In this document: positions 5,676 through 47,325 of the stretch, in pieces
Position numbering within the stretch: the stretch's first letter is position 1
How the letters are laid out: the number at the start of each line of letters is the position of its first letter
Assembly: GCA_944391375.1 (NCBI GenBank)
Contig: CALXTJ010000002.1
Location: forward strand, 82 to 64,081
DNA: 64,000 nucleotides
Reading direction: 5' to 3'
Source of the DNA: an uncultured Alphaproteobacteria bacterium
GTDB taxonomy: Bacteria; Pseudomonadota; Alphaproteobacteria; RF32; CAG-239
Program-made: the position numbers and the translations under genes
The notes under the pieces: generated by a model
Database searches by the model: none
The model's input: only the letters and a program-made list of their open reading frames with translations
Told to the model about the DNA's origin: nothing

Positions 5676-6680
5676 ATGTTAAAAACAGCAGAATTCGTAT
5701 CTTTAGGCCATCCTGATAAAACGGCCGATTACATTACCAGCCATATTTTAGATAAAATGCTGGAGCAAGACAGCTCCGTGCGTTACGCTTTGGAAGTTAT
5801 GGTAAAAGGAAATACCGTAATTTTGGGCGGAGAAGTAGGAGGTCACGTAAGCTTGAAAGCAATAGATGATTATGTCGTTGAGGCCGTAAGCAACATCGGC
5901 TATAATGCAAGATATGCCAAAATCTGGCAAGATAATGCCATAGATGTTAATAAGCTTAAAATCGTAAAACTTATCAGCAGACAGTCAAATGAAATTTATC
6001 AAGGTGTTAAAAACGGCGGCTGGGGGGATCAAGGCGTGTTTGTGGGCTATGCCTGTAAAGGTAAGGGTAATATGCCTCAAGAGCTGTATCTGGCCAAAAA
6101 GTTAAATAGGACTATTTATGAAAAGGCTTTATTAAGTGATAATTGGGGCTTAGATATTAAAACGCAGATTACTTTGGATAATAACGGAAAAGTAACCACG
6201 GCCATTGTCGCCGTACCGATGCTCAAACACGAAGATTTAGAAGAGTTTGTGGTCAATACTTTGCAAGCGGAGCCGGAAAAGTTAATAATTAACGGTACCG
6301 GAGACTATGTAATGCATTCTTCGGTTGCCGATTGCGGCATTACGGGACGAAAACTGGCTTGTGATTTTTATTCTACGGCTTGTGCCGTGGGCGGAGGTTC
6401 GCCTTGGGGCAAAGATGCCGGTAAAGCCGATGTCAGCTTAAATATTTTGGCACGACTTATGGCGGTGGAAAACCTACAAGATAATGATGAAGTGTTTGTA
6501 TACCTGTCATCTTGTATCGGAAAAGCAGATTTACCCAGTGCCGTGGTAAAGAGCATAAAAGACGGTAAAGTAAGTATCCGTAATTTGGAAGGCGATTTTT
6601 CACCTCATGCGGTAATTGAAAAACTGGGCTTAAACAAGCCGGTATTTGCCAAGCTTTGCAAGGAAGGCATAGTCCGTTAA
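5676..6680 (+). CDS. metK: S-adenosylmethionine synthetase, short divergent form
   Basis: MetK motifs GHPDK, GDQGVFVGYA and DCGITGRK...GGGSPWGKD are present, but the protein is only 334 aa and the C-terminal domain is shortened. Confidence 0.6.
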   Translation: MLKTAEFVSLGHPDKTADYITSHILDKMLEQDSSVRYALEVMVKGNTVILGGEVGGHVSLKAIDDYVVEAVSNIGYNARYAKIWQDNAIDVNKLKIVKLISRQSNEIYQGVKNGGWGDQGVFVGYACKGKGNMPQELYLAKKLNRTIYEKALLSDNWGLDIKTQITLDNNGKVTTAIVAVPMLKHEDLEEFVVNTLQAEPEKLIINGTGDYVMHSSVADCGITGRKLACDFYSTACAVGGGSPWGKDAGKADVSLNILARLMAVENLQDNDEVFVYLSSCIGKADLPSAVVKSIKDGKVSIRNLEGDFSPHAVIEKLGLNKPVFAKLCKEGIVR

Positions 6681-11451: not shown

Positions 11452-11781
11452 ATGGAAGTGTTTTTGTTTATTGCACTGTTTTTTATTTACTTGTTAATGG
11501 CCTTTAGTGTTCCGGCTACTATTTTAAAAAGGGTGTGGATATTGGGCTTTATTATAGCCTTTGCGGTAACTGCGGTTGCCATTATGCTGGTAAGCACCGG
11601 CAAACAAACCGTATTGATGCAGGAAAGTGAAGTAAACTGGTATTACTTTTTGTATTTGTTCGGTTCATTATCGGTTATGCTTGGTTTGATAAATATCTGG
11701 ATATACCGCAAGGCGTTATACCATATTTTTACTGCGGAAGATGAGGAAACTTCCGATAATACAACAACAAAAAAAGACTAG
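11452..11781 (+). CDS. small membrane protein (3 TM), unknown function
   Basis: ORF with hydrophobic helices and GGAGG-like RBS GGGAGGTAG upstream. Confidence 0.3.
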   Translation: MEVFLFIALFFIYLLMAFSVPATILKRVWILGFIIAFAVTAVAIMLVSTGKQTVLMQESEVNWYYFLYLFGSLSVMLGLINIWIYRKALYHIFTAEDEETSDNTTTKKD

Positions 11782-14432
11782 ATTTTAAAATTATCCAAGA
11801 TTTGCTCCAACTCGCTGTCGGTCATAAAATCGGGAAGCCGTAGTCCGTTGAGAGTATTAAAGTTATACATTATGTACAAAGGCAGACGGTGAGTATCGTA
11901 ATATTGCATGTATTCGGCAACTTCCGGACTGCCTTTGGTTATATTAAAAGGAATGTATTCCAGATTGTAAAGCTCTTGCCACCGTTTAAGATTATTGGCA
12001 TTGAAGGTAAGATAATCGTTAAATCGGCAAACAATGCACCACGGCGGGGTCAGAGCCACAATTACGGTTTTGCCGGCAGAGATTTTTTGATCAATCAATT
12101 GGGAGGAAATAATTGTTGCAGTATCTGTAAAACGGTAGCTTCCCAGCCGATTAGCGATGAATGATGCCCCCAATACAGCCGCAGCTATTATAATATAGAT
12201 AACATGTTCGGTTATCTGTTTTTGATTTTTAGGTAAGTCGGTTTGGTAAAGAGCCTGTAAAAAGTTAAAGGCATATTTAAGTAACAGCCATACGGCAATA
12301 ATGATTAAAAGCCATTTTAAGATATCCATAAATGATAATTGCACGATAATTATGCCGATAATCCGCAACATAAATACGGCAAGGCTCAAAACCGCCGCTA
12401 TCAGGCATAAAGCTTGAATTTTAGGAGACATGCTCGGAGATTTGGCAAAATATAAAATCACAGCCGTAATAAGGTAGGGTAAAGCTATACAAACGGCCAG
12501 AATATTAAGCAATATCAGTTGGGTGGTATAAGGAACTGACATAAGTTTATCAAACAGAGTGTCCGAATATTTAACGGCGGCCCAAGGTATAATCCAGGCC
12601 GTAAAAAGCCCCCAAACAAAACCTGATAAATTTGTATGTTTGTAAAAAGATTTCAGTTTATAATTAAGAGCAGAGATTGAGGCAATAGCCATTATTACCA
12701 TAAAGGTTAAAAGACCGATGCCAAGGTATTGTTCTCCGAAAATAAAATGCTTACCTTGCAAGAGTTTTAGAGCAATGGTAAATGCGTTGCAACCGACAAA
12801 AACACCACAGGCAGAAGCTATTAAACTTGGTAGTTTTTTGCGGTTTGCCAGATGATAGATTTTGAAAAAGAACAGAGCCAATCCGCAAGAGCTTATCCAA
12901 AATAACAAACCGACATAAACGGCGGTCAGATATCCGGCAGAAGGCTGAGAAGTATGATTGTTTGTATTTTGAAGCTCATTTAGGTTAAATGAACGATTGA
13001 GGCTGGTATACTGATTAAGTCTGGCGGTAAGTTGTATTTTGGTATTGCTGTTGTATTGCAGATTATGAGCCTTAACCGATGCTTTTATTTGGTGCCGCCC
13101 GATAACTATTTGCGGAGCGTCAAAATAGGTATTATCGGAACTTTCCAAAAATAATGCAAAGTTATTGACTTTGCCATCAAACTCAAAAGTAAAATCCAGA
13201 CGGTCAATCATATCGGGATTATCGGCATTAAACAGCGGAATAATTTGGGTTACGGTAAAATCTTCACAGTCTGTCTGCGGCAGATTATATAAACTCTGTT
13301 TTATAAAATTTTGCATTCCGGAAGATATATTGTCCTCTCCGTGTTCCACAACAAGCTCCGGATAAAACACATAAGGCTTGCATATCATACGGCTGTCGCA
13401 GGCCTCAAAAGAAAATTTTGCTTTTAAGGTTATCGGTAAATCGGGATTTTCGGTTTCAATCGTAATCGGGAAGGCCGGATCGCCGGCATAAGCGGCAATC
13501 ATTTTTTCATCGGTAAATTTAACGGGAAGCGGGTAAAAAAAGTTGTAACTTTTAATATTTTCGGAAGTAACAATTTCAAATTGCGGCTTTGATAAGCCGG
13601 GGAGGTTGTTGGCCAATATAAAAAGATGAGAAGGTATATCAACATGAACGGCCAAAGTAAATTGAGATAAGGAATTGATATTGGCCATTTCGGATATAAG
13701 GCGAACTTTAAATCCGTCTTTATTTTGCCAAGGGCCGACACCGGCATTACCAACTAAAGGATTAGGTAAAGAAACACCGTAAAAAGGCAACTTGGAAAAT
13801 TCCAGTTTAGCGACCATGGATTTAAATTTATCAAAATCGGTTTTCTGCTTTTTGGAATCAGCCAGCCTTTGTTGATAAGCCTCGCGAGCTTTAACATCTC
13901 GGGGGTTGGAACCGTAAGAAAGAACTTTTGTAAAATCTTCCACAAGAACGAATTTACCGTCTTCGGTTTCAAGATAGCGATAATTTTGCGGTTGATCAAA
14001 ATCATTTTCATCGGCCATAATCGGAGGTTCTTCAGGTACCAAAAAAGAGGCCTTAATATCGGCATATTTTTGTTTGCCCCAACGATAAAGTCTTACGGCA
14101 TTACGAATAAGCTTGGTTTGGTCGTAAACTTCCTGAGGGGATAATTCGGGAAATATAACGGCAACATCGGCGGAAAAATCGCGGTTGATTAAATCTCCGG
14201 GGTATTTTTCATCAAAATATTTGCCGAGTATTATAAGTTTACCGACGGAACTGTCGGTACTTTGGTTAATAAAATCACGCATAGATAAAGCATGAGGCAA
14301 ATCAAGCCTACCCGAAACGGGAACAATTTCTGCGGGATCCGGTTTAATATCAAGAGTAACATCGGCTGCCGATACCGTGGTTATATTGACAGCGAAGATA
14401 AAAATAACTATATATTTAAGTAAGGTCAGCAT
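11778..14432 (-). CDS. DsbD/ScsB-family thiol:disulfide interchange protein (long periplasmic N-domain, TM core, C-terminal thioredoxin)
   Basis: Signal peptide, ~480-aa periplasmic domain with a Cys pair, a multi-TM core with conserved Cys (SSCGL, ACGVFVGC), and a C-terminal WCIVC thioredoxin motif. Confidence 0.55.
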   Translation of the reverse strand: MLTLLKYIVIFIFAVNITTVSAADVTLDIKPDPAEIVPVSGRLDLPHALSMRDFINQSTDSSVGKLIILGKYFDEKYPGDLINRDFSADVAVIFPELSPQEVYDQTKLIRNAVRLYRWGKQKYADIKASFLVPEEPPIMADENDFDQPQNYRYLETEDGKFVLVEDFTKVLSYGSNPRDVKAREAYQQRLADSKKQKTDFDKFKSMVAKLEFSKLPFYGVSLPNPLVGNAGVGPWQNKDGFKVRLISEMANINSLSQFTLAVHVDIPSHLFILANNLPGLSKPQFEIVTSENIKSYNFFYPLPVKFTDEKMIAAYAGDPAFPITIETENPDLPITLKAKFSFEACDSRMICKPYVFYPELVVEHGEDNISSGMQNFIKQSLYNLPQTDCEDFTVTQIIPLFNADNPDMIDRLDFTFEFDGKVNNFALFLESSDNTYFDAPQIVIGRHQIKASVKAHNLQYNSNTKIQLTARLNQYTSLNRSFNLNELQNTNNHTSQPSAGYLTAVYVGLLFWISSCGLALFFFKIYHLANRKKLPSLIASACGVFVGCNAFTIALKLLQGKHFIFGEQYLGIGLLTFMVIMAIASISALNYKLKSFYKHTNLSGFVWGLFTAWIIPWAAVKYSDTLFDKLMSVPYTTQLILLNILAVCIALPYLITAVILYFAKSPSMSPKIQALCLIAAVLSLAVFMLRIIGIIIVQLSFMDILKWLLIIIAVWLLLKYAFNFLQALYQTDLPKNQKQITEHVIYIIIAAAVLGASFIANRLGSYRFTDTATIISSQLIDQKISAGKTVIVALTPPWCIVCRFNDYLTFNANNLKRWQELYNLEYIPFNITKGSPEVAEYMQYYDTHRLPLYIMYNFNTLNGLRLPDFMTDSELEQILDNFKI

Positions 14433-15496: not shown

Positions 15497-15572
15497 TGGT
15501 GAGCCCGACGGGATTCGAACCCATGACCCTTTGATTAAAAGTCAAATGCTCTACCGACTGAGCTACGAGCCC
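15497..15572 (-). tRNA. tRNA-Lys (anticodon UUU)
   Basis: Reverse complement GGGCTCGTAGCTCAGTCGGTAGAGCATTTGACTTTTAATCAAAGGGTCATGGGTTCGAATCCCGTCGGGCTCACCA folds as a cloverleaf with TTT anticodon, GTTCGAATCC T-loop and encoded CCA. Confidence 0.85.
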
Positions 15573-15729: not shown

Positions 15730-16053
15730 ATGGCTGAAAATCAAATTGTTGCCGATGATAAAAGCAGATATGATATCTTACAAAACGATAAGGGTGAAAT
15801 CTTGATTATTCTTCAACAACGTAGCGGCGGACCGGAAAATCCTTTGTTTGTGTATGACGGCTCTCCGTACGCTCTCCTCTATCGCAGCCATGAAAGTACT
15901 GTCTATTTTGATGATATAGTTGAGGGAGCCAGAAGTGCCTTGAAGGCCGTTACTTCAATGCAAGTCGTGGAAATTGACAATGATGACGAAGTGGTGCGTG
16001 AATATAAAGTTCCGTTGCGTATCGTCAAAGATGTTAAAGCCTTGATGGATTAA
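15730..16053 (+). CDS. hypothetical protein
   Basis: ORF with GAGG RBS, followed by an intrinsic terminator at 16066-16090. Confidence 0.35.
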   Translation: MAENQIVADDKSRYDILQNDKGEILIILQQRSGGPENPLFVYDGSPYALLYRSHESTVYFDDIVEGARSALKAVTSMQVVEIDNDDEVVREYKVPLRIVKDVKALMD

Positions 16054-16065
16054 ATTTTTCTAGTC

Positions 16066-16090
16066 ATAAAGGGCTTTACGGCCCTTTTTT
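16066..16090 (+). terminator. intrinsic terminator (AAAGGGC TTTAC GGCCCTTTTTT)
   Basis: GC stem plus T6. Confidence 0.5.
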
Positions 16091-16097: not shown

Positions 16098-17774
16098 TTG
16101 TGCATGATAGCTCAAATTGTTACTTCTCTTGCTCTTGTTTGTTTTGCGTCTTTGTGGAAAACCAAAGCTCGTTATGATACTCTCTTTTCTCTGTTATTGA
16201 CCTTAATCTTTGCATCGGCATTCGGATTTTATGCCGACGCTTGGCAGTCGGGATACGAAAGTACTTATTCTATCCTTTGGGATAGTACTCGCAGCGGGGA
16301 TGTTTCCTTAAGCATCAATTCTGATTTGGCTGTTTATACACAAGTCTTTCCTTTTTTTGCCATCTCTTTAATAGCTCTCTTTAATAACTTTCTGTTTCGT
16401 TACGAAACTAAAAAGAAAAATCTTGCCGTATTTATCATTTTAAATTTTATATCGCTGGTAATGCTTATTACTTCACAAAATTTTATCCAACTCATCACCT
16501 TTGTCTTTATTATTGATATGCTAAGCCAGTTCTTAATACGCGATATCAATGCCGGACGCCGCTATGCCATGTATAACCTTACGGCCGATATGGGCCTCTT
16601 TTTGGCTTTTGCCGTACTTCGCGGTAATATGCTTAACCTTAACTTGTCGGCACTCGGCGAATCTGTGGTACCTTTTCATAACTTTGTGGCCGTGGTTATC
16701 CTTCTTAGTCTGTGTATAAAATTCGGCTTCTTTATCTTCCATAGCTTTTTATTGGACTTAAAAAGTGCCAAATTTCATAGATTCTTTCTGGTGTTTTACC
16801 TCTCTTCGCCGATGACGGCTCTTATTCTTACTGCCAAACTGCTCCCCGTGTTGCGGCAATTTGAACCTCTTTACCTGATTATCAATATTATTATAGCCTT
16901 AAGCCTGATATGGGGCACAATCGGAGCGATTCTGATTCGTGATTTAAAAGAAAAAACCGTCTACCTTAATATGATGCTGTTTTCTTTATTGTTTAAACTT
17001 TTAACATATCCCGATTTTATATGGGATGAAAGCTTTTCTTGTATAATCATTGCCGCCTTTATGTTTAACTTGTGCCTGTATTATATTCATTACTTTTGGT
17101 TTAGGGAAACTAATGCTCTGATTGTCAATAAAGTACATTATGTAAATCCGCTCCCGCTTTATCTGCTTTTGGCAATTTGGATGGCCTTATGGGCCGTAGT
17201 TGCCATGCTGTTGTTTGCTTATACGGATAGGTATACGGCCTTTATTATGACTTTTATGGTTTTGTTTTCCTTAGCGGGAGCTTGGGTGTTTATTCAAGCT
17301 TTGCAATCTGATAACATTATTAAAAGTCTGAGAACGGATTATGATCATCGTCCGCTGTGGATTTTGGCGGCAGTTTTGACTTCGGGTATGGGCATAATGT
17401 TTTGGCAAAACTTATATTGGTATGCGGCGTTACCGGCATTGGCCTTGTTTTTAATGTTTTTTATTTTATCCCCCATAGGATTTATCTTAAATACGAATAC
17501 AACTTCGCTTAAATGGCAACATGCCGATGTCTTTAAAAATATTTATGATAAAATACTGGCCAGACCTTTGCAAATTATCGGCAAATCTCTGACTATTTTT
17601 GTTGATTTTATGTTTTTTGAAAAAACATTGATACTAATTATAAATACTTTTAGCGGCTTAACCGTCCGTATTTTTCGCCGTATCAGTCGTGAAAATGCTT
17701 TACGTTATTTGCTTTCCGTGCTGATAACCGTGTTTTTACTGTTTTGGTTTTTGACAAGGGGGCTTAATGGCTGA
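16098..17774 (+). CDS. NuoL/MrpA-like antiporter-type membrane subunit, highly divergent
   Basis: About 16 TM helices. The pattern around SILWDSTRSGDVSLSINSDLAV and DMGLFLAFAVL resembles NuoL (WTWMSVGDFNIGFNLVLDGLS / GDVFLAFALFIL). Confidence 0.45.
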   Translation: MCMIAQIVTSLALVCFASLWKTKARYDTLFSLLLTLIFASAFGFYADAWQSGYESTYSILWDSTRSGDVSLSINSDLAVYTQVFPFFAISLIALFNNFLFRYETKKKNLAVFIILNFISLVMLITSQNFIQLITFVFIIDMLSQFLIRDINAGRRYAMYNLTADMGLFLAFAVLRGNMLNLNLSALGESVVPFHNFVAVVILLSLCIKFGFFIFHSFLLDLKSAKFHRFFLVFYLSSPMTALILTAKLLPVLRQFEPLYLIINIIIALSLIWGTIGAILIRDLKEKTVYLNMMLFSLLFKLLTYPDFIWDESFSCIIIAAFMFNLCLYYIHYFWFRETNALIVNKVHYVNPLPLYLLLAIWMALWAVVAMLLFAYTDRYTAFIMTFMVLFSLAGAWVFIQALQSDNIIKSLRTDYDHRPLWILAAVLTSGMGIMFWQNLYWYAALPALALFLMFFILSPIGFILNTNTTSLKWQHADVFKNIYDKILARPLQIIGKSLTIFVDFMFFEKTLILIINTFSGLTVRIFRRISRENALRYLLSVLITVFLLFWFLTRGLNG

Positions 17775-19185
17775 AAATTTGTTGTTAATGATTATCTTTC
17801 TGCCTCTGTTCGGAAGTTTGTTTGTGGCTTTGTCACGCGATAATAACGGTACGGGAATTTCCGTAAATGCGGCGGCCGTTGCCGTTTGGACTTTGCTGTT
17901 TAATATTGCTCTTATCCTGGTCTTGTTTTCCCAAATGAATACGGAAAGTGATAATATTCAATATGTTACCACATTTAAATGGTTGCTGCCTCAAACCTTG
18001 AGTATATCCTTTGGGGTAGATGTTTTTGCTCTGATTATGATATTGGGTATTAACCTGGCATTACTGATAGGTATATTAAGTCTAAGATCGCATTTTAAAA
18101 ATCAAAAATTTCAAATAGGCTTTTCGTTGCTGTTTCTGTGTGCTTATACCGGGCTGTTTTCCGCTCTTGATTTGATGTCTTTTTATGTATTTTTTGTTAT
18201 TATGATACCTCCTTTGTTTATGCAAATCGGTATGGATGCCGATAATCGGATACCCGGACGCTTTTTGTTGTATAATTTTTTGGGTACATTTTTGTTGTTG
18301 TTTGCCGTTGTTATGCTCTATTGCTCTGAGCCAAATAATATTCTTATTGCTAATATTTCCGATATTAAACTTGACGGGCAATCCGGAATTTGGGTTTGGA
18401 GTTGCATATTTATGGGCTTTATGTTTCGGATTCCTGTTTGGCCATTTCATTATTGGATAAGCTCGGTTAATACGGTTATCCGCAATCCGTTGACTTTTAT
18501 TTGTGCTAATATGCTGCCCATTTCCGGATTATTCGGATTTTTGCGGTTTTGGCCGGCGGCAATTCCGGAACAAATTTCCTCTTTAACGCCGGTATTTGCC
18601 ATATTTTGTGCCGCTACCATGTTGTATTTAGCCTTTCGCGGATATAGCCTTAACAACGCTCGTGACAAGCTTTTTTCTTACATATTTATTTACTACTTGC
18701 TTTATTTGTTGGGTATATTGGCTCCGACCGATATTTTACAACGCAACATTGCTTATTCTTTATTTGCGTTTCTTTTGGTGTTTTCCGGGCTCTCCATGGT
18801 GGCTTTCCATCTGGAAAAAGAAAATAATAAATCTCCGGGAAGCTTAAACGGAATATTGTGCATATTACCCAAAGCTTCGTTTGCTTACTCTTTGTTGATA
18901 TCGGTAGCCATCGGTTTTCCGGTTTCGGCATTGTTCTGGAATAATTTTATTATAGTTTCTCAGGTCCTTTATACCAATGTTTATATAGGTGTTACTGCTG
19001 TTTTAACGCTCCTTTTAGCGGCAGCCTTTTTATTGCAACACTTATATTCGCTTAAAGATAATGAGTGCATGCTGCCGACAAAGGATACCCTAAGAGATGT
19101 TGATAATGTTCAGTTCGGTATGTGCCTTGCGGTAATGAGCATTTTGTTTTTGTCTTTTATTAAACCGTTATGGTTTGTTTATTAA
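17767..19185 (+). CDS. NuoM-like antiporter-type membrane subunit, highly divergent
   Basis: Aligns by eye with NuoM: WLLPQTLSISFGVDVFALIMILG vs WIPRFGISIHLAIDGLSLLMVVL; FYVFFVIMIPP vs FFFFWEMMLVP; RIPVWPFHYWI vs KMPVVPLHGWLPDAH. Confidence 0.5.
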   Translation: MAENLLLMIIFLPLFGSLFVALSRDNNGTGISVNAAAVAVWTLLFNIALILVLFSQMNTESDNIQYVTTFKWLLPQTLSISFGVDVFALIMILGINLALLIGILSLRSHFKNQKFQIGFSLLFLCAYTGLFSALDLMSFYVFFVIMIPPLFMQIGMDADNRIPGRFLLYNFLGTFLLLFAVVMLYCSEPNNILIANISDIKLDGQSGIWVWSCIFMGFMFRIPVWPFHYWISSVNTVIRNPLTFICANMLPISGLFGFLRFWPAAIPEQISSLTPVFAIFCAATMLYLAFRGYSLNNARDKLFSYIFIYYLLYLLGILAPTDILQRNIAYSLFAFLLVFSGLSMVAFHLEKENNKSPGSLNGILCILPKASFAYSLLISVAIGFPVSALFWNNFIIVSQVLYTNVYIGVTAVLTLLLAAAFLLQHLYSLKDNECMLPTKDTLRDVDNVQFGMCLAVMSILFLSFIKPLWFVY

Positions 19186-20605
19186 GGAAAAATCAATGGA
19201 AATATTGGCCGGATATGTTAATGTTTTTTTTCTGCTGGCAGGGGTTTTAGTGCTTTCGGTTCGTCGTATTTGGAGCGATGAATCGGCCAAAGGTTATATT
19301 GCCGTTGCCAAGCTGTTTATTGTGGCCGATTTATTATCTTTAATCTTTTTTTATGATAAAAATATTTGGCCGGAGTATATGTCTAATGACGCTTTTTCGC
19401 TTGCTGTCTATATCTTAACCGCTCTGATGATGTATGTGTGGTTAAGTTTGTCATTAAAATGGTTTACGGCTTCCGGACTTCCTTCGTGTTGGTTTTGTGT
19501 TTTGGCCTTATTGTTGTTGTTTTGCTTTAAAATATTGGTTGCCACGGTTAATTTAGGAATAATGGCGGCAATTTTAACGGCCATTTTACTGTTACAATAT
19601 ATGTTATTACGGTTTAGTCAGGAAAATGAAGAGTTTCATAACATAAGCGGAAAATATCTTATAAATACGGCTCTTTGTATAGTATTATTGGGAGTTTCTT
19701 TATATTTATTTGCCCCTAAAAATTGGTCTTTGGCAAACGCTTTTGCTTTTATACAAACCTTGCCCATGCCGCAAATTTTTATAACTATAGGCGGCTTATT
19801 AGTGGTTTTATTGTTTATGATGGGTATTGCTCCGCTGCATTTTGGCATAACCGATATTGTCGGTCCGGCAGTTTTACCGGTGGCAGCTTATTTTACTTTT
19901 GTGCCGGTTATGGCTTTATGGACAACTTTTATCAAACTTAATGTAAAAGTGTTTGCCTCGTTAAGTACTAGGCTTGAATCTTTTTATGTATGTCTGGGCA
20001 TAATCTGTATTATTATCGGGGCAATAGGGGCTAACAGCAGTCGTAATCTGCGACGGATATTTGCTTTTATGGCTTTGTTTAATTTAGGTATTCTTTTAAT
20101 GGTTATTGCACCGTTTAATTATCAGTCGGTTGTGTATGTTGTTTGCGGCCTATTGTTTTATGTTTTGACATGCTTGGGAGTTTATACCGTATTTTATGGT
20201 TTTAAAAGCCAAGGTGAGTATTTAAGCACTTTAAATACTCTGTACGGTTTTTTCAAAGTTCGTCCCTTTATGGCCTTGACACTGTTTTTTTTCCTATTGT
20301 CGGTTACCAATGTGGCTCCGTTATGGGGATTTTTAAATTTATGGGAATTGTTACACCGTATTGTTGCCGATAAAAATTATTTGTTAATGATTGTTGTGTT
20401 CGGAACCGCTTTATTGCTGTTATCTGCCTTATTTCAAGTTTCGCGAACCATATTTTTTACCAAAAAAAGTACCAATTTTGATCGCGGAGAATTTAGTGTT
20501 TATTTATTTTTAGCATTAAATCTGTTATTACAAATGTGGCTTATGCTCAATGCCGGAGCACTTTCGGAGACGGTCAATAATTTGTTATCGGAAATGGTAA
20601 GCTGA
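19175..20605 (+). CDS. NuoN-like antiporter-type membrane subunit, highly divergent
   Basis: Multi-TM protein. GIAPLHFGITDIVGPAVLPVAAYFTFVP parallels the NuoN motif [27 protein letters not shown]. Confidence 0.45.
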   Translation: MFIKEKSMEILAGYVNVFFLLAGVLVLSVRRIWSDESAKGYIAVAKLFIVADLLSLIFFYDKNIWPEYMSNDAFSLAVYILTALMMYVWLSLSLKWFTASGLPSCWFCVLALLLLFCFKILVATVNLGIMAAILTAILLLQYMLLRFSQENEEFHNISGKYLINTALCIVLLGVSLYLFAPKNWSLANAFAFIQTLPMPQIFITIGGLLVVLLFMMGIAPLHFGITDIVGPAVLPVAAYFTFVPVMALWTTFIKLNVKVFASLSTRLESFYVCLGIICIIIGAIGANSSRNLRRIFAFMALFNLGILLMVIAPFNYQSVVYVVCGLLFYVLTCLGVYTVFYGFKSQGEYLSTLNTLYGFFKVRPFMALTLFFFLLSVTNVAPLWGFLNLWELLHRIVADKNYLLMIVVFGTALLLLSALFQVSRTIFFTKKSTNFDRGEFSVYLFLALNLLLQMWLMLNAGALSETVNNLLSEMVS

Positions 20606-20606: not shown

Positions 20607-21341
20607 ATGGAAAATATAAATTCATGGTTATGGAAAGATGTGGAGATTGTAGACAGCACCAATAATGCCGTCTTTGAATTATGCAAGCAAATAAAAAAGC
20701 CTTGTATAATTACGGCCCGAGAACAAAACAAGGGTAAGGGGAGGCGAGGCCGAAGCTGGATAGGTTATAAAGATAATTTGTTTATGTCTTTGGCTTTTTA
20801 TCTGCCGCTTGATAAGTTAGGGCAAACGGTTATTTTAAGCGGATTGGCAGTTTTAAATACGGTAAAATATTTTTGCCCTAAGGTGGATATTAAAGTTAAG
20901 TGGCCCAATGATGTTTTAGTAGGCGGAGCCAAAATATCGGGAATTTTATTTGAAAAAGGTCCGGATGATTTTTGGATTATGGGTATAGGCGTTAATATTG
21001 TGGCACATCCTAAGCAAAATCAGACCGGATATACAACGACCGGATTAAATTATTTGGGAGCCAATACGGATCGTTTAGCCGTATTAAAGCGGTTTGTGGA
21101 GATTTGGGATACCATGACGGAAGATTATAATCGTTGCGGATTTGCAAAATTTAAGCAAGCCTGGCTTGACAACGCATTTAAATTAGGCCAAAAAATAATA
21201 ATAAAACAGGAAAATCGGGAACAGGAAGGTGTATTTAGAGGTATAGATGACAATGGCAGCCTGATTTTAGAACAGAACAATCGGAATATTAAGGTGTTGG
21301 CCGGCGATTTATTTGATATCAGAGATAAAAAGGGAGAGTAA
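20607..21341 (+). CDS. birA: biotin--[acetyl-CoA-carboxylase] ligase (catalytic domain only, no HTH)
   Basis: BPL motif QNKGKGRRGRSW (cf. GRGRRGR), KWPNDV, and a C-terminal SH3-like domain. Confidence 0.75.
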   Translation: MENINSWLWKDVEIVDSTNNAVFELCKQIKKPCIITAREQNKGKGRRGRSWIGYKDNLFMSLAFYLPLDKLGQTVILSGLAVLNTVKYFCPKVDIKVKWPNDVLVGGAKISGILFEKGPDDFWIMGIGVNIVAHPKQNQTGYTTTGLNYLGANTDRLAVLKRFVEIWDTMTEDYNRCGFAKFKQAWLDNAFKLGQKIIIKQENREQEGVFRGIDDNGSLILEQNNRNIKVLAGDLFDIRDKKGE

Positions 21342-21342
21342 T

Positions 21343-23031
21343 TTGCAAAAGGAAGGAATATATTTTTTACCGTTGGGCGGAGCCGATGAAATCGGTATGA
21401 ATATGTATGCTTATTCAGTGAACAGTAAGTGGATTGTGGTAGATACAGGATACGGATTTTTAAATGATGATTATCCGGGAATGGATATGTGTTATGCATC
21501 ACCTGCATTTTTGGAAGAAATTAAAGATAAAGTTGAGGGTATATTTATTACTCACGCACATGAAGATCATATGGGAGCTATTGCTCAAGTTTGGCCATCT
21601 TTGCAAGCTCCGGTATATGCCACGGCCTTTGCTGCTTGTTTAATAAAGAGCAGATTAAAAGAATATAAAATGGAAAATCTGGTGCCGATTAAAGAGGTAA
21701 AACCAGGAGATGTGGTAGATTTAGCGGAATTTAGGGTAGAGTTTGTTCCTCTTGTTCACTCGGTACCGGAAACCTGCGGTTTGTTTATAAAAACGGCATA
21801 CGGTAACATTTTTCATGCCACGGATTGGCGTTTTGATGACGGACGGCTTGATATGCTGCCGACCGGTATGGATTCATTAAAAAGAGCCGGCAAGGAAGGA
21901 GTAATGATGTTTGTTTGCGATTCAACAAATGTCATGCTGGATAAAATTCAGGCCAGTGAAGCAAAAATTCGTAAAAATCTGGAGGAGTTGATACCCGGTA
22001 TTAAGGGAGGGTTGATAGTAACCTGTTTTGCGTCCAATTTAATGCGTTTGGAAAGTTTGGTATTAGCTGCCCAAAAAGCCGGCCGCACGCCGATTTTATT
22101 GGGCAAAAGCTTATGGACAAACATAAAAGCGGCCAAAGAATGCGGCTATTTTGCCGATTTACCGCCGGTTTATACTCCCGAAGAAGTTCAGGGCATAACT
22201 TCGGATAAAGCTTTATATATTTGCACCGGCTCGCAGGCCAATTATCGCAGTGCTTTGAGTGTGATTGCCAAGGGTGAGAGCAAATATGTTAAACTCGGTC
22301 CCGATGATACGATTATTTTTTCCTCAAAAATCATTCCCGGTAACGAGGAAAAAATTGAAAAAATGCAAGAGAAAATGATAGATTTGGGAGTAAAAGTAAT
22401 TACCGAGGAAACGGCGGCAGTTCATACTTCGGGACACCCTTCCAAAGAAGAACTCAAAAAAATGTACAAACTTTTAAAACCGCAGATTGTTTTTCCGGTG
22501 CATGGGGATAAACGATTTATCAGGGAGCATAAAAGGTTTGCACTAAAGTGCGGAGTTAAGGAGGTTTGTTCAGGGCAAAACGGTGATTTATTTTGGTTAA
22601 AAGACGGTAATATAATGAAAGAAGAGGAAGTTTTTTCCGATATTATGGGTGTTGACAGAGGTCGGCAGGTATCATTATCGTCCGATTTAATCAAAAATCG
22701 CCGCCGCATAGCGTATAATTGCAGTTTGTTTGTGAGTTGCATTATTTCTGCTGACAATAAAGTAGCCGATTTGGAAATATCCTCCATAGATATTTTGGAA
22801 GAAAAAGATTGGGAAATATTAAGCCAAGAAATAAAAGAAACGGTTATTCCTTTAATTGAGGCTCGTTTAAGCGAACACGGCGGGCTTGATAACTCCACCA
22901 AAGACTTTATTCGTGGGCAGATACGCAAAAGAGTTTATAAAGCAACCGATATTAAACCGGTTACATTTTTTCATATTTATCAGGAAAATAAGCATAATGA
23001 CGAAAATAAGGAGGAAGAGCAATGTCAATAA
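21343..23031 (+). CDS. rnj: ribonuclease J (metallo-beta-lactamase / beta-CASP RNase)
   Basis: LPLGGADEIGMN plus THAHEDHMGA (HxHxDH). A TTG at 21343 with RBS AAAGGGAGAG fits better than the ATG at 21313, which overlaps birA; either is possible. Confidence 0.7.
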   Translation: MQKEGIYFLPLGGADEIGMNMYAYSVNSKWIVVDTGYGFLNDDYPGMDMCYASPAFLEEIKDKVEGIFITHAHEDHMGAIAQVWPSLQAPVYATAFAACLIKSRLKEYKMENLVPIKEVKPGDVVDLAEFRVEFVPLVHSVPETCGLFIKTAYGNIFHATDWRFDDGRLDMLPTGMDSLKRAGKEGVMMFVCDSTNVMLDKIQASEAKIRKNLEELIPGIKGGLIVTCFASNLMRLESLVLAAQKAGRTPILLGKSLWTNIKAAKECGYFADLPPVYTPEEVQGITSDKALYICTGSQANYRSALSVIAKGESKYVKLGPDDTIIFSSKIIPGNEEKIEKMQEKMIDLGVKVITEETAAVHTSGHPSKEELKKMYKLLKPQIVFPVHGDKRFIREHKRFALKCGVKEVCSGQNGDLFWLKDGNIMKEEEVFSDIMGVDRGRQVSLSSDLIKNRRRIAYNCSLFVSCIISADNKVADLEISSIDILEEKDWEILSQEIKETVIPLIEARLSEHGGLDNSTKDFIRGQIRKRVYKATDIKPVTFFHIYQENKHNDENKEEEQCQ

Positions 23032-24212: not shown

Positions 24213-25667
24213 ATGCTTGCAGCCAAAAATAATGTTTCAGCCATACGGTTTGAAGTGTTAAGTAAAGTCGCCGAAAGTTTTTTGAAAAATAATTTTGCAG
24301 ATATAAATGATTTGCCGCAAATTTTAGCCGGTGATAAAGCCCTCCGCGGCTCCGTTGCCAAAGATGTGCGGGTCTTAAAAGAACAAATCATTTCGGTGTT
24401 GGGCTTTACTCCCGAAAATGAAGATTTGAACCGCTCTTTAACTGATTTTGCCCAATCGGCACTGGCAAGGAAATCTGCTCCTTTAGCTACCATGTCGGTT
24501 TTACCTTCGGCTTGTGCCGCCTGTATGAAAACTCGCTTTACCGTAACCGATATGTGTCGCGGTTGTGTGGCTCGTCCTTGCGAATTAAACTGCCCTAAAA
24601 AGACCATTACGGTGGCAGATAAAGCTTTTATTCATCAGGAAAATTGCATTAAATGCGGCATGTGTGCCAATGTTTGTCCTTACGGGGCCATCAATAAAGC
24701 TCCGGTTCCGTGTGAAGATGCTTGTCCGGTAGGGGCCATAAATAAGGATGAAAACGGTTTTGAACATATTGATTACAACAAATGCGTATCTTGCGGAAAA
24801 TGCTTGGTATCCTGTCCGTTCGGAGCTATTGTTTATAATTCGCAGATGATTGATGTTTTAAATCAAATAAAATCTTCCGGTAAAAAAGTTGTTGCCATGT
24901 TGGCTCCGGCTATTGTCGGCCAGTTCGGCAACGATATCGGTAAAGTAATTACGGCCTTAAAGAAAATCGGCTTTGCCGAAGTTGTTGAAGTTGCCGAAGG
25001 TGCCGATGTTACTACTTTAAAAGAAGCCGCCGAATTTATTGAAAGAATGGAGCAAGGTGAGCCTTTCATGACTACTTCTTGCTGTTCGGCTTGGTTCAAA
25101 TCTACCGAAACCTTGGTTCCTGAGTTAGCTCACTATGTATCCAGCACCAAAACTCCGATGTACTATATTGCCGAAATCGTTAAAAACAAAATGCCGGATT
25201 GTCTTACGGTATTTGTCGGACCTTGTTTGGCAAAACGGATTGAGGCGGAAAAAAATCCTAATGTTGATTATGTTTGGGTTTTTGAAGAATTAGCCGCCGT
25301 TTTGGCCGGTTCCGGTATTGATGTCAATACTTGCGAAGCTTCGGGCTTTGAGCATGTGGCTTCGGCTCAGGGACGAATTTATCCCGTAACCGGAGGTGTG
25401 GCCGGAGCCGTGGCTCATATTATAGGCGATAAAATTCCCTGTAAACGCGAAGCTATTGACGGCTTAAATAAAGAAGCTTTTCGTAAATTAAAAATGTATG
25501 CCGCCAAAAAAAGTGCCGGTGAATTTAATTTGATTGAGGTAATGTGCTGCGAAGGCGGATGTGTCGGCGGTCCGGGATGTGTGGTTACTCCCAAAAAGTC
25601 GGCGGTTATGGTTGAAAATTATGTAAAGGCCAGTCCGGATTTGAAGGATATGCAAGGCAATAAGTAA
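24213..25667 (+). CDS. [FeFe]-hydrogenase-like protein (two 4Fe-4S ferredoxin motifs plus H-cluster-type domain)
   Basis: Motifs CIKCGMCANVCP and CVSCGKCLVSCP, then H-cluster-like TTSCCSAWF (L1), GPCLAKRIE (L2) and EVMCCEGGCVGGPG (L3). Confidence 0.55.
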   Translation: MLAAKNNVSAIRFEVLSKVAESFLKNNFADINDLPQILAGDKALRGSVAKDVRVLKEQIISVLGFTPENEDLNRSLTDFAQSALARKSAPLATMSVLPSACAACMKTRFTVTDMCRGCVARPCELNCPKKTITVADKAFIHQENCIKCGMCANVCPYGAINKAPVPCEDACPVGAINKDENGFEHIDYNKCVSCGKCLVSCPFGAIVYNSQMIDVLNQIKSSGKKVVAMLAPAIVGQFGNDIGKVITALKKIGFAEVVEVAEGADVTTLKEAAEFIERMEQGEPFMTTSCCSAWFKSTETLVPELAHYVSSTKTPMYYIAEIVKNKMPDCLTVFVGPCLAKRIEAEKNPNVDYVWVFEELAAVLAGSGIDVNTCEASGFEHVASAQGRIYPVTGGVAGAVAHIIGDKIPCKREAIDGLNKEAFRKLKMYAAKKSAGEFNLIEVMCCEGGCVGGPGCVVTPKKSAVMVENYVKASPDLKDMQGNK

Positions 25668-42975: not shown

Positions 42976-43006
42976 TTGTAAAAAAAGGCTATAAAAAAGC
43001 TATAAT
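42976..43006 (+). promoter_or_regulatory. sigma70-like promoter TTGTAA-N19-TATAAT directly downstream of the 10-bp array
   Basis: Identical copy at 47502-47532. Confidence 0.45.
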
Positions 43007-43147
43007 CGTGAGAAGTTGTGCAAGCTGCTTTAAAAGAAAAGAGTGATGTTAAAAATGGTCGCAATACTATTGACAGTAGTTTAAGTGATAACTATGCTAA
43101 CGAAATAGGACGGCTGTTAGGAACAAAATATCGCAAAGGAGATTGTG

Positions 43148-43273
43148 ATGCTCTCATCCAACAATACATTAACAAAAATTGGTAAGTGGCTTATTGTATC
43201 TTTTGTTTTCGTTGCGGGGCTTGTGCTTACTGCCCTTATTAGTTTGAGCTGTGTCTACATCTTCAGCTTGTAA
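43148..43273 (+). CDS. small hydrophobic peptide (41 aa, one TM) downstream of cassette promoter
   Basis: MLSSNNTLTKIGKWLIVSFVFVAGLVLTALISLSCVYIFSL; below the 60-aa ORF-track cutoff. Confidence 0.2.
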   Translation: MLSSNNTLTKIGKWLIVSFVFVAGLVLTALISLSCVYIFSL

Positions 43274-43314
43274 CAGGTCTATAAAATTGTTTGAGTAAAA
43301 CAAGGAGATTGCTG

Positions 43315-44106
43315 ATGAAAAAGGCTCTGTACATTCTTTTAGAGGTCTTGTTTATATTTTTGATTGTAAATAATCGGGAATATTGGCTTGTTGCCGACCA
43401 AGCAGTCCGGGTAAGCGGAGTTTATGTATGGCTTATCTTAACGGCTTATTCTGTCCTTAAAACATACGGAGCCTTTAATTGGAAACTTACCATAAAACCT
43501 GTTTTTGTAATATGTGAACTATTGTTGTTTATATTATCGGGTTGCGTTTTGGAATTATACACCCAAAGTTTGGCAATAACCCCACAAATACACACTGTAT
43601 TTTTACCCTTAATTTTTTATGTTTTGGTATTGGGGACGGGATGGTATATACTGCCTAAAAACAACCCGACAATAAACGATTTTACCACCCATTGTCAACA
43701 GCATTCCAAACGTTATCTTGCTTTGATTTGGTTTTTGGCTGCCTTGTTTATATGTCCGCCGATTTTAACCGTTGTTTACAGCAAGGTATGGTTTGTGCTG
43801 ATACTGATGGGAATATACGTGTTTTTGCCGTATAAAATAAGTACTTTGTTGCTCAAAGATTTATCGTTAAACAAATTCTTTTCATTAGGAAAAGTAATTC
43901 CCGTAATGTTGATAATTTTTGTTCAGATAAATCTGGAAGCGATACTCAGTGGTTTTTGTTTTTACGGATCTTGGTTGGATGCTTATAGGTTGGTAAAATA
44001 CATAATAATTATTGCCGTTTTGCGGTGTATTATTTGCAGCTTAATATTATGCGTATTAGATTACAAACAAACCAAAGGATTATTTATAACAGCCAAAACA
44101 AAATAA
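43315..44106 (+). CDS. hypothetical polytopic membrane protein (cassette gene)
   Basis: About 8 TM helices. RBS AAGGAG 8 nt before ATG 43315. Confidence 0.4.
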   Translation: MKKALYILLEVLFIFLIVNNREYWLVADQAVRVSGVYVWLILTAYSVLKTYGAFNWKLTIKPVFVICELLLFILSGCVLELYTQSLAITPQIHTVFLPLIFYVLVLGTGWYILPKNNPTINDFTTHCQQHSKRYLALIWFLAALFICPPILTVVYSKVWFVLILMGIYVFLPYKISTLLLKDLSLNKFFSLGKVIPVMLIIFVQINLEAILSGFCFYGSWLDAYRLVKYIIIIAVLRCIICSLILCVLDYKQTKGLFITAKTK

Positions 44107-44134
44107 ATAAGGTTAATCATATAAGAGGTGATTT

Positions 44135-44671
44135 ATGGAAGAAGGAACAAAAAAGCCGGAAGAAGATGACGCATTGTTCAAAGAGGATGCCAAGACCATA
44201 TATTTTTCATTTGAAGGGGTATTCGGTCGCATACAATTTTTTATAGTAGCGGTTACCCTCGGTGGTTTTATGGATTTGATGAGTACGGGAAATAATATAG
44301 TACTCGTAGCCATAGGCACAGCCATAGTATTTTATGCGATGCTGGCAGCGATTCAAAAACGCAGTCGTGATATGAATATTGGCGGTAGTTTGTTTATTTT
44401 ATTGTATTCTCTGAGTTTTCCGATAAGTCGGATGATGTTATACGGTAGGGATACTGGAAATCCGATAATTATCCATAACGACATAATTCGGACCAGTTTT
44501 TACGGAGCGTTAATAGGATATTTGATAGTATCATTGCTTTTAGTGCTTATACCCGGAGCAAAGAAGAAGGATATGAGCAAAAGAAGTCCGTTATTAAAAA
44601 ATCCTCCGCTGTATTTTTTAATATGCGTAATAATTTATGCCATAGTCGCCTACTTTATCAGAGATTTATAG
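44135..44671 (+). CDS. DUF805-like inner-membrane protein, paralog of 42250..42783
   Basis: YFSFEGVFGRIQFF, YAMLAAIQKRSRDMNIGGS, and an identical C-terminal 39 aa. Confidence 0.45.
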   Translation: MEEGTKKPEEDDALFKEDAKTIYFSFEGVFGRIQFFIVAVTLGGFMDLMSTGNNIVLVAIGTAIVFYAMLAAIQKRSRDMNIGGSLFILLYSLSFPISRMMLYGRDTGNPIIIHNDIIRTSFYGALIGYLIVSLLLVLIPGAKKKDMSKRSPLLKNPPLYFLICVIIYAIVAYFIRDL

Positions 44672-44689
44672 TCTGTAAGAGATTACCAA

Positions 44690-44720
44690 AGAGGGGGTAA
44701 AAGCTCCCTCTTTAGTGTTT
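44690..44720 (+). terminator. cassette boundary terminator hairpin, copy 2
   Basis: AGAGGGGGTAAAAGCTCCCTCT plus TTAGTGTTTT. Confidence 0.45.
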
Positions 44721-44773
44721 TAAAAGCAGACACAATATATAGTAATTTTGTAACAAATATATTATGCACAAGT

Positions 44774-44800
44774 GCCGAAGCTCATAACTTCGGTATTTTT
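44774..44800 (+). terminator. conserved stem-loop GCCGAAG-CTCATAA-CTTCGGT plus T-run, copy 1 (just before RBS)
   Basis: Same element at 47602 and 48959. Confidence 0.45.
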
Positions 44801-44823
44801 TATATAAAAGAAAGGAAAAAATT

Positions 44824-44940
44824 ATGACAAATAAACTAATTACCATGGCTGGTAAATATGCAGTTAAAAAAGTTCGTAATAAAACCGTTAATAAGGCCAT
44901 GGAAAAAATAAGCGAGCCATATGAAAAATTCAAAAAATAG
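44824..44940 (+). CDS. small ORF (38 aa) starting MTNK..., possible decayed remnant of the conserved N-terminal module
   Basis: First 12 nt (ATGACAAATAAA) identical to the 41623 and 47657 genes. Preceded by the conserved stem-loop plus RBS. Confidence 0.2.
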   Translation: MTNKLITMAGKYAVKKVRNKTVNKAMEKISEPYEKFKK

Positions 44941-45145
44941 GTTTTCGGCATAAAACCTCTAAATGTTGGGGAAAGAGAAACCATAAAATGTTTACAAAAT
45001 CGTCATAATACCTTAGATTATTGTAAGAATATAGGAAACAAGGCAAGGAAAGCTTATCAAAAATCCGTAAAATATAGGTAACTTTTTATTAAAACCAAAA
45101 TACGCATCAACACGGACAATATGCACTGTATAACGGGAAGATAAT

Positions 45146-45406
45146 ATGAAAAAGATAATACTGTTTATAATTGGTCTTATGTGTATACCGCCGATATTGG
45201 GTTATTTGACGACATATGTAAGTAACAATCCGGAATATGAAATATACACCGGATTTTGGGGAGTCCTGTATCTATTTATTTATATTCTTTTTCCTTTGTT
45301 ATATAAAGGGAAAATAAAACAAGCTATGAATAGATATGCTTTTTATGCCTTGTTGTACGGCATTTTGTTTCTGATAATAAATATATTGCTCATTTGCTTT
45401 AATTAA
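45146..45406 (+). CDS. small membrane protein (3 TM), hypothetical
   Basis: ORF with hydrophobic helices. Confidence 0.3.
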   Translation: MKKIILFIIGLMCIPPILGYLTTYVSNNPEYEIYTGFWGVLYLFIYILFPLLYKGKIKQAMNRYAFYALLYGILFLIINILLICFN

Positions 45407-45464
45407 ATATGATGAAGCTGTAAAAAGCAGCAAGATTATAATGGTAAATAGAAAGGATAGAGAA

Positions 45465-45965
45465 ATGAAGAATATAATATTTTTACTGTTGGCAGTACTA
45501 ATTCCGACATTGAGTTTGGCAGCAGAAGAAAAGTCAATATTTACATATGAAGCAGAAAAATGTTCCGGTGAAGAAGATGTATTTATACGAGGTTTAGAGG
45601 AAGAATTAGCTAATTGTAAAATTCAAATGCCGGATAATCCATCTACGGTAGATATGAATGAAACTTATTACAAAGTCGGCGATTGCTCTATTGCTGTAGC
45701 CAATAAACTTTTTGATAGAAATTACAAAAAGTATAATGAGCAGGTAAAACAGGATTTTGATGCACTTGTCAAAGCATTTTATGCAAATGCTCATGATATG
45801 GTTCAACATAGCGATTTTGGACTTTTAAGAGGAGGAACTATGTACAATACGGAAGCCATTGCTACGGGGGCTTTTTGGATTAGAGATGTGGTAAAAGAAT
45901 ACCTTTATCAAGCACGAATGGAATGCGATGATAAGGCAGGATTTGATTCACTGGATATAGAATAG
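45465..45965 (+). CDS. secreted hypothetical protein (signal peptide)
   Basis: MKNIIFLLLAVLIPTLSLAAEEK signal; RBS AGGATAGAGA. Confidence 0.35.
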   Translation: MKNIIFLLLAVLIPTLSLAAEEKSIFTYEAEKCSGEEDVFIRGLEEELANCKIQMPDNPSTVDMNETYYKVGDCSIAVANKLFDRNYKKYNEQVKQDFDALVKAFYANAHDMVQHSDFGLLRGGTMYNTEAIATGAFWIRDVVKEYLYQARMECDDKAGFDSLDIE

Positions 45966-46062
45966 ATTATTTTAATCAAACAATGAAAAAGAGACTTGTA
46001 AAAGTCTCTTTTTTGTGCTTTTAAAGAAAGGAAAAATAAGTTAGGCTAGATAAAATGATATG

Positions 46063-46180
46063 GAAATCGCTCTCAAAACGGACAAAAACGGCGTATTTAA
46101 TGACAAAACCGAACAAAATTGAACAATTCTGAACAAAATTAAACAAAAGTGAACATTTTTGAACAAAATTGAACAATCTT
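46063..46180 (+). repeat. conserved leader plus variant phased 10-bp array (GAACAAAATT-type x7)
   Basis: Leader GGAAATCGCTCTCAAAACGGACAAAAACGGCGTATTTAATGACAAAACC. Units at 46111-46180: GAACAAAATT, GAACAATTCT, GAACAAAATT, AAACAAAAGT, GAACATTTTT, GAACAAAATT, GAACAATCTT. Confidence 0.65.
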
Positions 46181-46788: not shown

Positions 46789-46855
46789 TACTTTACAAAG
46801 CACATAAAAAGATTAAATATATAAGGAGGGTTATAATTGTTGGGAAATGTAATAA

Positions 46856-47314
46856 ATGATCATTAAACTGCAGAATGTTTTGTTTGTATTGGGAGTTACT
46901 TTTGTTATACAACTGCTATATATGTTGTTGATGTTTATAATTTTTTTATTAAATAACAATCTAGCAGTTAATAATGAAGAGCTTTTTTTATTTGTTTTGG
47001 ACAATGTTTTATTTGTATCCATAGCCTTAGGAGCCATTAACCTATTTAGTAATAGGTTGTCTTTATATATTTACGAAAAAAGTATAAAAAAAATACCTAA
47101 TTTACGGTGGTATTGTATGTTCTTTAGCTGGACTGTCATTATCCAAAAATTCATACCCGAATTTGAAATCTTTTATGCTGTTTTAATAAGTTGTATAGTT
47201 GGTGCATTGTGTTATCCTGATCGTACCTGGAAACAAAGAGTTAGATATTCATTGATATTTGTTGCTATTTTATTGATGTATTTCTTGGGAGGTTTTACCG
47301 ATTTTGAAAATTAA
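46856..47314 (+). CDS. small polytopic membrane protein (candidate cognate/immunity-like gene of orphan module)
   Basis: 4 TM helices, immediately downstream of 46159..46788. Confidence 0.35.
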   Translation: MIIKLQNVLFVLGVTFVIQLLYMLLMFIIFLLNNNLAVNNEELFLFVLDNVLFVSIALGAINLFSNRLSLYIYEKSIKKIPNLRWYCMFFSWTVIIQKFIPEFEIFYAVLISCIVGALCYPDRTWKQRVRYSLIFVAILLMYFLGGFTDFEN

Positions 47315-47325
47315 CATCATACCAA

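Follow-up and report, generated by a model that had tools for sequence, protein, structure and literature searches.

A divergent NuoL-NuoM-NuoN trio at the ancestral nuo position in uncultured gut Alphaproteobacteria, probably serving a function other than proton pumping

The window analysed here is a 64,000-nucleotide stretch of contig CALXTJ010000002.1 from an uncultured alphaproteobacterium, and its subject is a set of three consecutive plus-strand open reading frames (ORFs) at 16098-17774 (558 aa), 17767-19185 (472 aa) and 19175-20605 (476 aa), which we call L*, M* and N*. An earlier note on this DNA had described them as three highly divergent relatives of the complex I membrane subunits NuoL, NuoM and NuoN, in that order, with degraded proton-path motifs. 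The features of the locus are as follows:

15497-15572, minus strand: tRNA-Lys, upstream of u111
15730..16053, plus strand: u111, a conserved 107-aa soluble protein, function unassigned, directly upstream of L*
16068..16090, plus strand: terminator-like hairpin AAAGGGC-TTTACG-GCCCTTT with a T-run after it, in the spacer that separates u111 from L*, read from the sequence
16104..17774, plus strand: L* (NuoL-derived), from family profile and AlphaFold2 (AF2) fold
17767..19185, plus strand: M* (NuoM-derived), from PF00361 and family profile
19196..20605, plus strand: N* (NuoN-derived), from PF00361 and family profile
20607..21341, plus strand: birA, biotin-protein ligase (Pfam BPL_LplA_LipB and BPL_C), a synteny anchor
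21313..23031, plus strand: RNase J gene, rnj (Pfam RNase_J_b_CASP, Lactamase_B and RMMBL), the second synteny anchor

The L* and N* ORFs open at TTG codons (16098 and 19175, respectively), and family alignments and public gene calls place their likely true starts at ATG 16104 and ATG 19196; residue numbers below are counted from 16098 for L* and from 19175 for N*. The M* start overlaps the L* stop by 8 nt. The neighbours had been given in the earlier note as a tRNA and birA; birA does follow the trio, but the 107-aa gene and the hairpin lie between tRNA-Lys and the first ORF. An algH-like gene is also present upstream of the trio, beside tRNA-Lys and u111, and downstream of the RNase J gene come an LD-carboxypeptidase gene (ldcA) and then an [FeFe]-hydrogenase gene. 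Pfam scans and tblastn with E. coli NuoA-K found no other nuo genes in the 64-kb window.

Two of the three proteins can be recognized from their single sequences. M* and N* match PF00361 at 53.5 and 53.6 bits (cut-off 21.5 for N*), so that the hidden Markov model check proposed in the earlier note succeeds for ORF2 and ORF3, whereas ORF1 has no match; L* as a single sequence has no counterpart in Pfam, NCBIfam or the PDB, and its identification needed a family profile and structure prediction. Both M* and N* remain below the curated scores for their subunits (TIGR01972, NuoM, 140.3 bits against a cut-off of 263.8; TIGR01770, NuoN, 109.2 bits against 332.6). The N* family profile finds Paracoccus denitrificans NuoN at 2.4e-48 (residues 7-454 against 8-460) and E. 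coli NuoN at 7.6e-47, with MrpD (1.5e-25) and NuoM (5e-15) far behind. The M* family profile finds Paracoccus NuoM at 1.6e-46 and next plant mitochondrial ND4, the single M* sequence already reaching 2e-20, and the similarity to NuoM (M*) and NuoN (N*) spans the full length of the families. Against the PDB, the L* family profile matches M. smegmatis NuoL (6.5e-12), MrpA (3e-11) and Paracoccus NuoL (3e-11), and its residues 470-555 align separately to Paracoccus NuoL 615-700, the segment that forms the lateral helix HL and transmembrane helix (TM) 16. The AF2 model of L* (predicted local distance difference test (pLDDT) 69, predicted template-modelling score (pTM) 0.72) has about 16 TM helices, a 53-residue helix at 478-530 (HL) and a last helix at 534-557 (TM16), and in a Foldseek search of the PDB its top 43 matches are all NuoL, ND5 or NdhF chains (probability 1.0, TM-score 0.57-0.64).

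L*, M* and N* are thus true homologues of NuoL, NuoM and NuoN, and profiles, fold and synteny (below) agree on the L-M-N order that had been read from the sequence. The earlier note had kept in view an unrelated transporter family; its proteins would only mimic the NuoL/M/N spacing. The lack of any Pfam, NCBIfam or single-sequence PDB match for ORF1 speaks for such a family, but profile, fold and synteny all point specifically to NuoL, NuoM and NuoN in order; we regard it as vanishingly improbable and excluded it.

The position of the trio was compared with that of canonical nuo genes. The closest canonical NuoM match lies in a full nuo operon, but with a different downstream context, and Paracoccus NuoN was therefore taken as the synteny query instead; it retrieved 80 metagenome loci whose canonical NuoN is 50-87% identical to it. 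All 60 of these loci with enough downstream sequence have a birA homologue after nuoN on the same strand, and an RNase J homologue is found ≤3 kb downstream of nuoN in 51/51; nuoM and nuoL lie upstream of nuoN, as does nuoK where it is detectable, nuoK-L-M-N being contiguous. The divergent loci keep the order u111-L*-M*-N*-birA-rnj, with L-M-N in this order in 77/80, birA after N* in 71 of 72 related loci and rnj downstream in all 72. The most distant family members share this gene context, and the genes upstream of u111 vary between clades. Because canonical nuoN also precedes birA and the RNase J gene, L*M*N* are positional orthologues of nuoL-M-N, the 3' end of the ancestral alphaproteobacterial nuo operon.

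The remaining nuo genes are missing from these loci. When E. coli queries were run by tblastn against the window and 86 loci (1.43 Mb, ~80 species; this genome was covered over ~75 kb at the locus, the others over ±10 kb), NuoA, B, CD, E, F, G, H, J and K gave no match, and the sole NuoI match was the ferredoxin motif of the hydrogenase. Respiratory genes are likewise absent from the ~10 kb beyond one end of the window (PGI, mutL, gyrA) and from the prophage region (below). The earlier observation that no nuo genes flank the trio thus holds in the window and at the loci of ~80 related species, and the trio's stand-alone status holds for the locus. We propose that the operon lost nuoA-K in the common ancestor of a large group of uncultured Alphaproteobacteria from gut and rumen, which we take to be the GTDB order RF32, and that L-M-N would have stayed beside birA and the RNase J gene. 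The papers searched gave no account of an orphan nuoLMN module or of energy metabolism in this clade, the nearest being one on the order Rs-D84 (below).

In the E. coli enzyme, the proton relay of these subunits includes the ion pairs NuoN E133/K217, NuoM E144/K234 and NuoL D178/K229, the central residues NuoN K247 and NuoM K265, and the distal residues NuoN K395, NuoM E407 and NuoL K399/D400, and NuoM H322 may help transfer from K265 to E407 (PMC9271201). As a control, all 20 key positions were found to be 100% conserved in canonical relatives (73 NuoN, 45 NuoM and 43 NuoL sequences). The corresponding residues of the trio, numbered first as in E. coli (Ec) and with counts from family alignments of 79 M*, 77 N* and 74 L* sequences, are:

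M*, Ec E144: V144 (window codon 18196-18198); E in 39/79
M*, Ec K234: R221; R in 78/79
M*, Ec H248: N235; N or S in the family
M*, Ec K265: P251/I252; P in 79/79
M*, Ec H322: Y310
M*, Ec H348: F335
M*, Ec E407: N393; N in 79/79
N*, Ec E133: T135; variable in the family, mostly uncharged
N*, Ec K217: M215; M/L/S/A in the family
N*, Ec K247: V245; P/L/V in the family
N*, Ec K395: L389 (window codon 20339-20341); K/R in 34/77
L*, Ec K229: K208, kept; K in 74/74
L*, Ec D178: D164, kept; acidic in 74/74
L*, Ec E144: F137, lost; D140 one turn later in 56/74
L*, Ec H254, H334, H338 and K342: lost; F233, C315, A319 and F323 in the window
L*, Ec K399/D400: region unalignable, no counterpart; no charged position is conserved from 287 to 473

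In this genome none of the 11 key Lys/Glu/His residues of M* and N* is unchanged, and L* keeps two of nine (K229 and D178). For this genome, alignment to E. coli bears out every motif change that had been quoted for NuoM and NuoN: the NuoM motif reads LFFFFWEMMLVPM vs SFYVFFVIMIPPL (E144 to V144), the second motif MPVVPLHGWLPDAH vs IPVWPFHYWISSVN, and IAPLHFGITDI stands at the NuoN position. The connecting residues in mid-subunit (TM8 Lys/His, TM11 His/Lys) are now Pro, Leu, Tyr or Phe. The TM7 PFH motif and the TM12 GxP..F motif are retained, H222 being the only invariant residue of the PFH motif in N*. Degradation of the proton path, as first described, therefore stands, and most relay residues are gone, with two corrections: the TM7 Lys is invariant in L* (K208) and is replaced by Arg in M* (R221), and the TM5 Glu of M*, absent here (V144), is kept in 39 of 79 family members. 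Judged from the alignments, family members differ in how far the relay has decayed, and some of the replacements are themselves fixed.

The charges that survive lie mostly at subunit interfaces: K208/D164 in L*, R221 with or without E144 in M*, and K/R389 in part of the N* family. In the complex I arrangement the L* ion pair adjoins TM12 of M*, and the M* E/R pair adjoins TM12 of N*. Within the lateral helix HL, L* conserves D503, E508 and K/R509. Across the family, M* E144 and N* K/R389 are both present in 33 cases and both absent in 38, with five discordant cases (Fisher p = 7e-16), a pattern consistent with a retained N*-M* contact; as proof of contact it was rejected, since the split is largely that of one clade. 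Because L* keeps HL and TM16, the clamp on NuoM and NuoN, and because interface charges survive, the three proteins probably still assemble side by side as in the distal membrane arm of complex I. The hydrophilic axis, however, appears broken inside every subunit, and a module with its axis interrupted in each subunit would be incapable of redox-driven proton pumping.

Such an architecture might also be kept if the trio still belonged to a complete complex I whose nuoA-K genes have been relocated; the dead antiporter subunits would serve as anchors, and fewer protons would be pumped per NADH, via NuoH/A/J/K only, an arrangement that would be suited to anaerobic respiration at low potential. 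Scattered nuo genes are known from some reduced alphaproteobacterial genomes, the clamp helix of L* and the interface ion pairs are kept as expected if architecture matters, and our view of this genome extends over ~75 kb. Nonetheless, we consider relocation unlikely: the 1.43 Mb of window and flanks from ~80 species contain no NuoA-K homologue, canonical relatives have nuoK-L-M-N contiguous, and N* is without the E133/K217 pair, to which the signal passes from the NuoK side. In a study of Rs-D84, a gut alphaproteobacterial order with reduced genomes that might overlap with this clade, no respiratory complexes I-IV were found (PMC12306168).

The trio is widespread. M* has >118 homologues at 34-83% identity, after which identity falls sharply to 25% with canonical NuoM, and a scan of one genome per species found M* encoded in 235 species genomes. 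The best 80 of these 235 are nearly all labelled as metagenome-assembled genomes of uncultured Alphaproteobacteria or Proteobacteria from human, ruminant, pig and chicken guts, including CAG:495, Candidatus Scatocola and 'Azospirillum sp.' UMGS149; one contig among the 80 is labelled Lachnospiraceae. Automated annotation calls the trio genes 'NADH-quinone oxidoreductase subunit M/N' or 'hypothetical'.

Wherever contigs allow, the L*, M* and N* ORFs are intact in essentially all species. The ratio of nonsynonymous to synonymous substitution rates (dN/dS) between strains, a check that the earlier note had suggested, indicates purifying selection: L* gives 0.09-0.16, M* gives 0, its strains differing by 1-6 synonymous changes and no nonsynonymous one, and N* gives 0.04-0.57, the N* values coming from few substitutions and the highest from one pair with six; for comparison, birA gives ~0.2 and rnj 0.04-0.11. 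Median pairwise identities in 56 species are 58% for u111, 56% for rnj, 41% for M*, 41% for birA, 30% for N* and 26% for L*. The three genes are clearly fast-evolving yet maintained by purifying selection, and they are not pseudogenes.

These values bear on the idea of a relic, which the earlier note had offered as one reading. Taken as decaying DNA, the term does not fit genes whose ORFs are intact, whose dN/dS is mostly 0-0.2 and in which several replacement residues are invariant. In its fuller form this explanation holds that functionless remnants persist only because they are cotranscribed with birA and the RNase J gene, both essential. L* and N* do evolve faster than birA, the terminator-like hairpin just before L* suggests low expression, and the curated NuoM and NuoN cut-offs are missed widely. 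Remnants are, however, very improbable: at least 235 species carry ~4.5 kb of intact ORFs, most of which overlap or lie close together, with no frameshifts or stops; dN/dS is well under 1; and there are family-specific invariant residues. Genomes as compact as these would also be expected to delete dispensable DNA.

The gene directly upstream, u111, stands where the missing nuoA-K would be. Among 69 species loci with sufficient flanks it is the neighbour of L* in 58 and is absent or relocated in the other 11. By the median identities given above it is the best-conserved gene of the cluster, ahead of L*, M*, N* and birA. It has no Pfam, NCBIfam or PADLOC match; its AF2 model (pLDDT 84) consists of seven strands and one helix and has no significant Foldseek match in the PDB or BFVD, and its profile finds in the PDB only a marginal match to phenylacetate-CoA ligase (E = 0.009). 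An exhaustive profile search placed the u111 domain in 562 clusters, and it occurs in many multidomain proteins, C-terminal to TIR, to STAND NTPase plus TPR, or to Sel1 repeats. From these architectures, the domain appears to be common to a housekeeping-like gene and to conflict-system-like proteins. As a lead to the function of the trio u111 was set aside, the TIR, STAND and Sel1 fusions leaving the trio unexplained. A defence-system reading was also rejected: L*, M* and N* have no PADLOC match and show strict vertical synteny at a housekeeping locus.

The hairpin ends ~13 nt before the L* ATG. Its AAGGGC...GCCCTT stem and T-run recur in the u111-L* spacer of at least 34 of 58 related loci, and in many of them the hairpin is followed by a conserved TTGTTATATTG motif. 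It is conserved in sequence, not in structure alone, across species whose proteins are 25-60% identical, which is unusual for a plain terminator. No riboswitch, known RNA or ion-responsive element was found upstream of the trio. Because the hairpin sits ~13 nt before the L* ATG, we infer that L*M*N* are made by terminator read-through, at a low level and along with birA and the RNase J gene behind them, u111 being a strongly expressed separate unit. Because this conserved hairpin separates it from L*, u111 is not counted as a proven partner and may be regarded as a conserved neighbour, a candidate partner at most.

The function of the module is now probably other than proton pumping. Its most likely role is that of a non-pumping membrane module, a structural or assembly scaffold, in which L* might have at most a residual ion-conducting role. 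We give a probability of roughly 60% to the reading that L-M-N is a selection-maintained module at its ancestral locus that still assembles and does not pump protons.

Several points weigh against this reading. Constraint on L* and N* appears weak, given their fast evolution and median identities of 26% and 30%. The M* E144 and N* K/R389 pairing (33 against 1 outside it) is suggestive but weak as evidence of contact, as it tracks one clade and so few independent events. Confidence in the L* model is only moderate (pLDDT 69). As regards nuoA-K, quinone synthesis and terminal reductases, the view of these genomes covers only the ~75 kb here and ±10 kb elsewhere. Finally, the invariant polar residues of M* (R221, H228, N392 and N393) seem to exceed what a pure scaffold needs and could form a new substrate site. 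Sequence data alone cannot choose between a scaffold and a repurposed transporter.

The same invariant residues are the main attraction of an autonomous secondary transporter or channel with a rebuilt polar network (R221-H228-N392-N393 in M*, K208-D164-D140 in L*), either a Mrp-like cation/proton antiporter or a carrier of something other than protons. The M* residues lie strictly conserved in the discontinuous helices TM7 and TM12, L* retains K208/D164, the antiporter-like subunits are homologous to MrpA and MrpD, and isolated NuoL has been reported to conduct cations. Such a transporter is nonetheless quite unlikely, since the mid-subunit positions are now Pro, Leu, Tyr or Phe with no continuous polar path evident, N* is almost devoid of conserved polar residues in the membrane, no MrpB/C/E/F/G-like small subunit or DabA-like partner is adjacent, and no riboswitch or ion-responsive element lies upstream.

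A broader form of independence is possible, if doubtful: throughout the clade the trio may form an autonomous three-subunit complex, a naturally de-modularized distal arm, in bacteria without any complex I, with a role unrelated to redox-driven pumping. M* R221, P251 and N392-N393 and L* K208/D164 would then serve gated ion or solute conduction or membrane organization, and the adjacent u111 might take part.

Among known systems, the closest to a non-pumping L-M-N module is complex I itself (NuoL/M/N; Nqo12/13/14; ND5/ND4/ND2), with which the trio shares the same three paralogues, their order and their position before birA and the RNase J gene; the best profile matches of M* and N* are to Paracoccus and plant-mitochondrial subunits, and L* has the NuoL fold with HL and TM16. 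Unlike complex I, the trio locus has no nuoA-K, the curated cut-offs are not reached and the relay residues are largely gone. The Mrp (Mnh/Pha/Sha) antiporters are similarly redox-independent membrane complexes of NuoL-like and NuoM/N-like subunits, but NuoL, NuoM and NuoN outscore MrpA and MrpD for each trio protein, L* ends after TM16 as NuoL does, without the MrpA C-terminal extension, and the neighbours (u111, birA, the RNase J gene and ldcA) include no small Mrp subunits, although no dedicated profiles were used for these. Mrp also keeps the Lys/Glu relay. In DabB-DabA, MpsA-MpsB and the cyanobacterial NdhF3/NdhD3-CupA modules, a PF00361 subunit works outside classical complex I with a soluble partner, much as u111 adjoins the trio. 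However, DabB2 is a weak match (2e-8) to the N* profile, no DabA or CupA Pfam family occurs in the flanking genes, u111 has no similarity to DabA or CupA, and here a hairpin parts u111 from L* and u111 is absent or relocated in 11/69 loci.

Other features of the window are described here for completeness. The [FeFe]-hydrogenase-like gene (24213-25667) encodes two ferredoxin-type domains and an H-cluster domain (Fe_hyd_lg_C, 1.7e-56), with TSCC, PCxxKxxE and ExMxCxxGCxxG-type motifs visible by eye; it is linked to the trio cluster in closer relatives only, and its sequence points to an anaerobic, H2-evolving lifestyle. The region from ~43000 to 59600 is a probable prophage or mobile element, with a GC content of 31-33% at 44-50 kb and many ORFs without a Pfam match; identical genes on other contigs are annotated as Phage_capsid_4 and Phage_lysozyme, and in one strain related phage genes directly upstream of u111 replace the usual neighbours. 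The S-adenosylmethionine synthetase homologue at 5676-6680 is short (334 aa), and its three MetK Pfam domains score weakly (72, 57 and 35 bits), the first two listed being above their cut-offs and the middle one barely so, a sign that this MetK may be unusually divergent. The minus strand at 11778-14432 encodes a polytopic membrane protein of 884 aa; its DsbD_N and thioredoxin-like matches are sub-threshold, and the first 26-aa stretch of its N-terminal region resembles a signal peptide. At 45% identity to its counterpart in the nearest other species, against 76-96% for its neighbours, this protein is evolving fast.

Hydrogenosomes, anaerobic mitochondrion-related organelles, keep only NuoE/NuoF-type subunits of complex I. 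The parallel with the trio is a reduced complex I of alphaproteobacterial type in an anaerobe with [FeFe]-hydrogenase, in which one module survives, but the surviving module is the opposite one: the trio is the distal membrane arm, and the redox modules are gone at this locus. The trio would in this sense be a bacterial counterpart of the reduction of complex I in anaerobic organelles. The current labels of the trio genes could lead to a wrong inference of respiration in these gut bacteria. NuoL, NuoM and NuoN are usually treated purely as proton-pumping devices, and few features in bioenergetics are as conserved as their Lys/Glu/His relay; a large clade has dropped it and kept the three proteins, in order, under selection. 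The family may also be read as a natural mutant collection of what the L-M-N scaffold tolerates, with K265 to Pro and E407 to Asn fixed and interface ion pairs kept or lost together. If the trio also works without the rest of the enzyme, then the membrane arm of complex I would have a second, pump-independent and as yet unstudied role.

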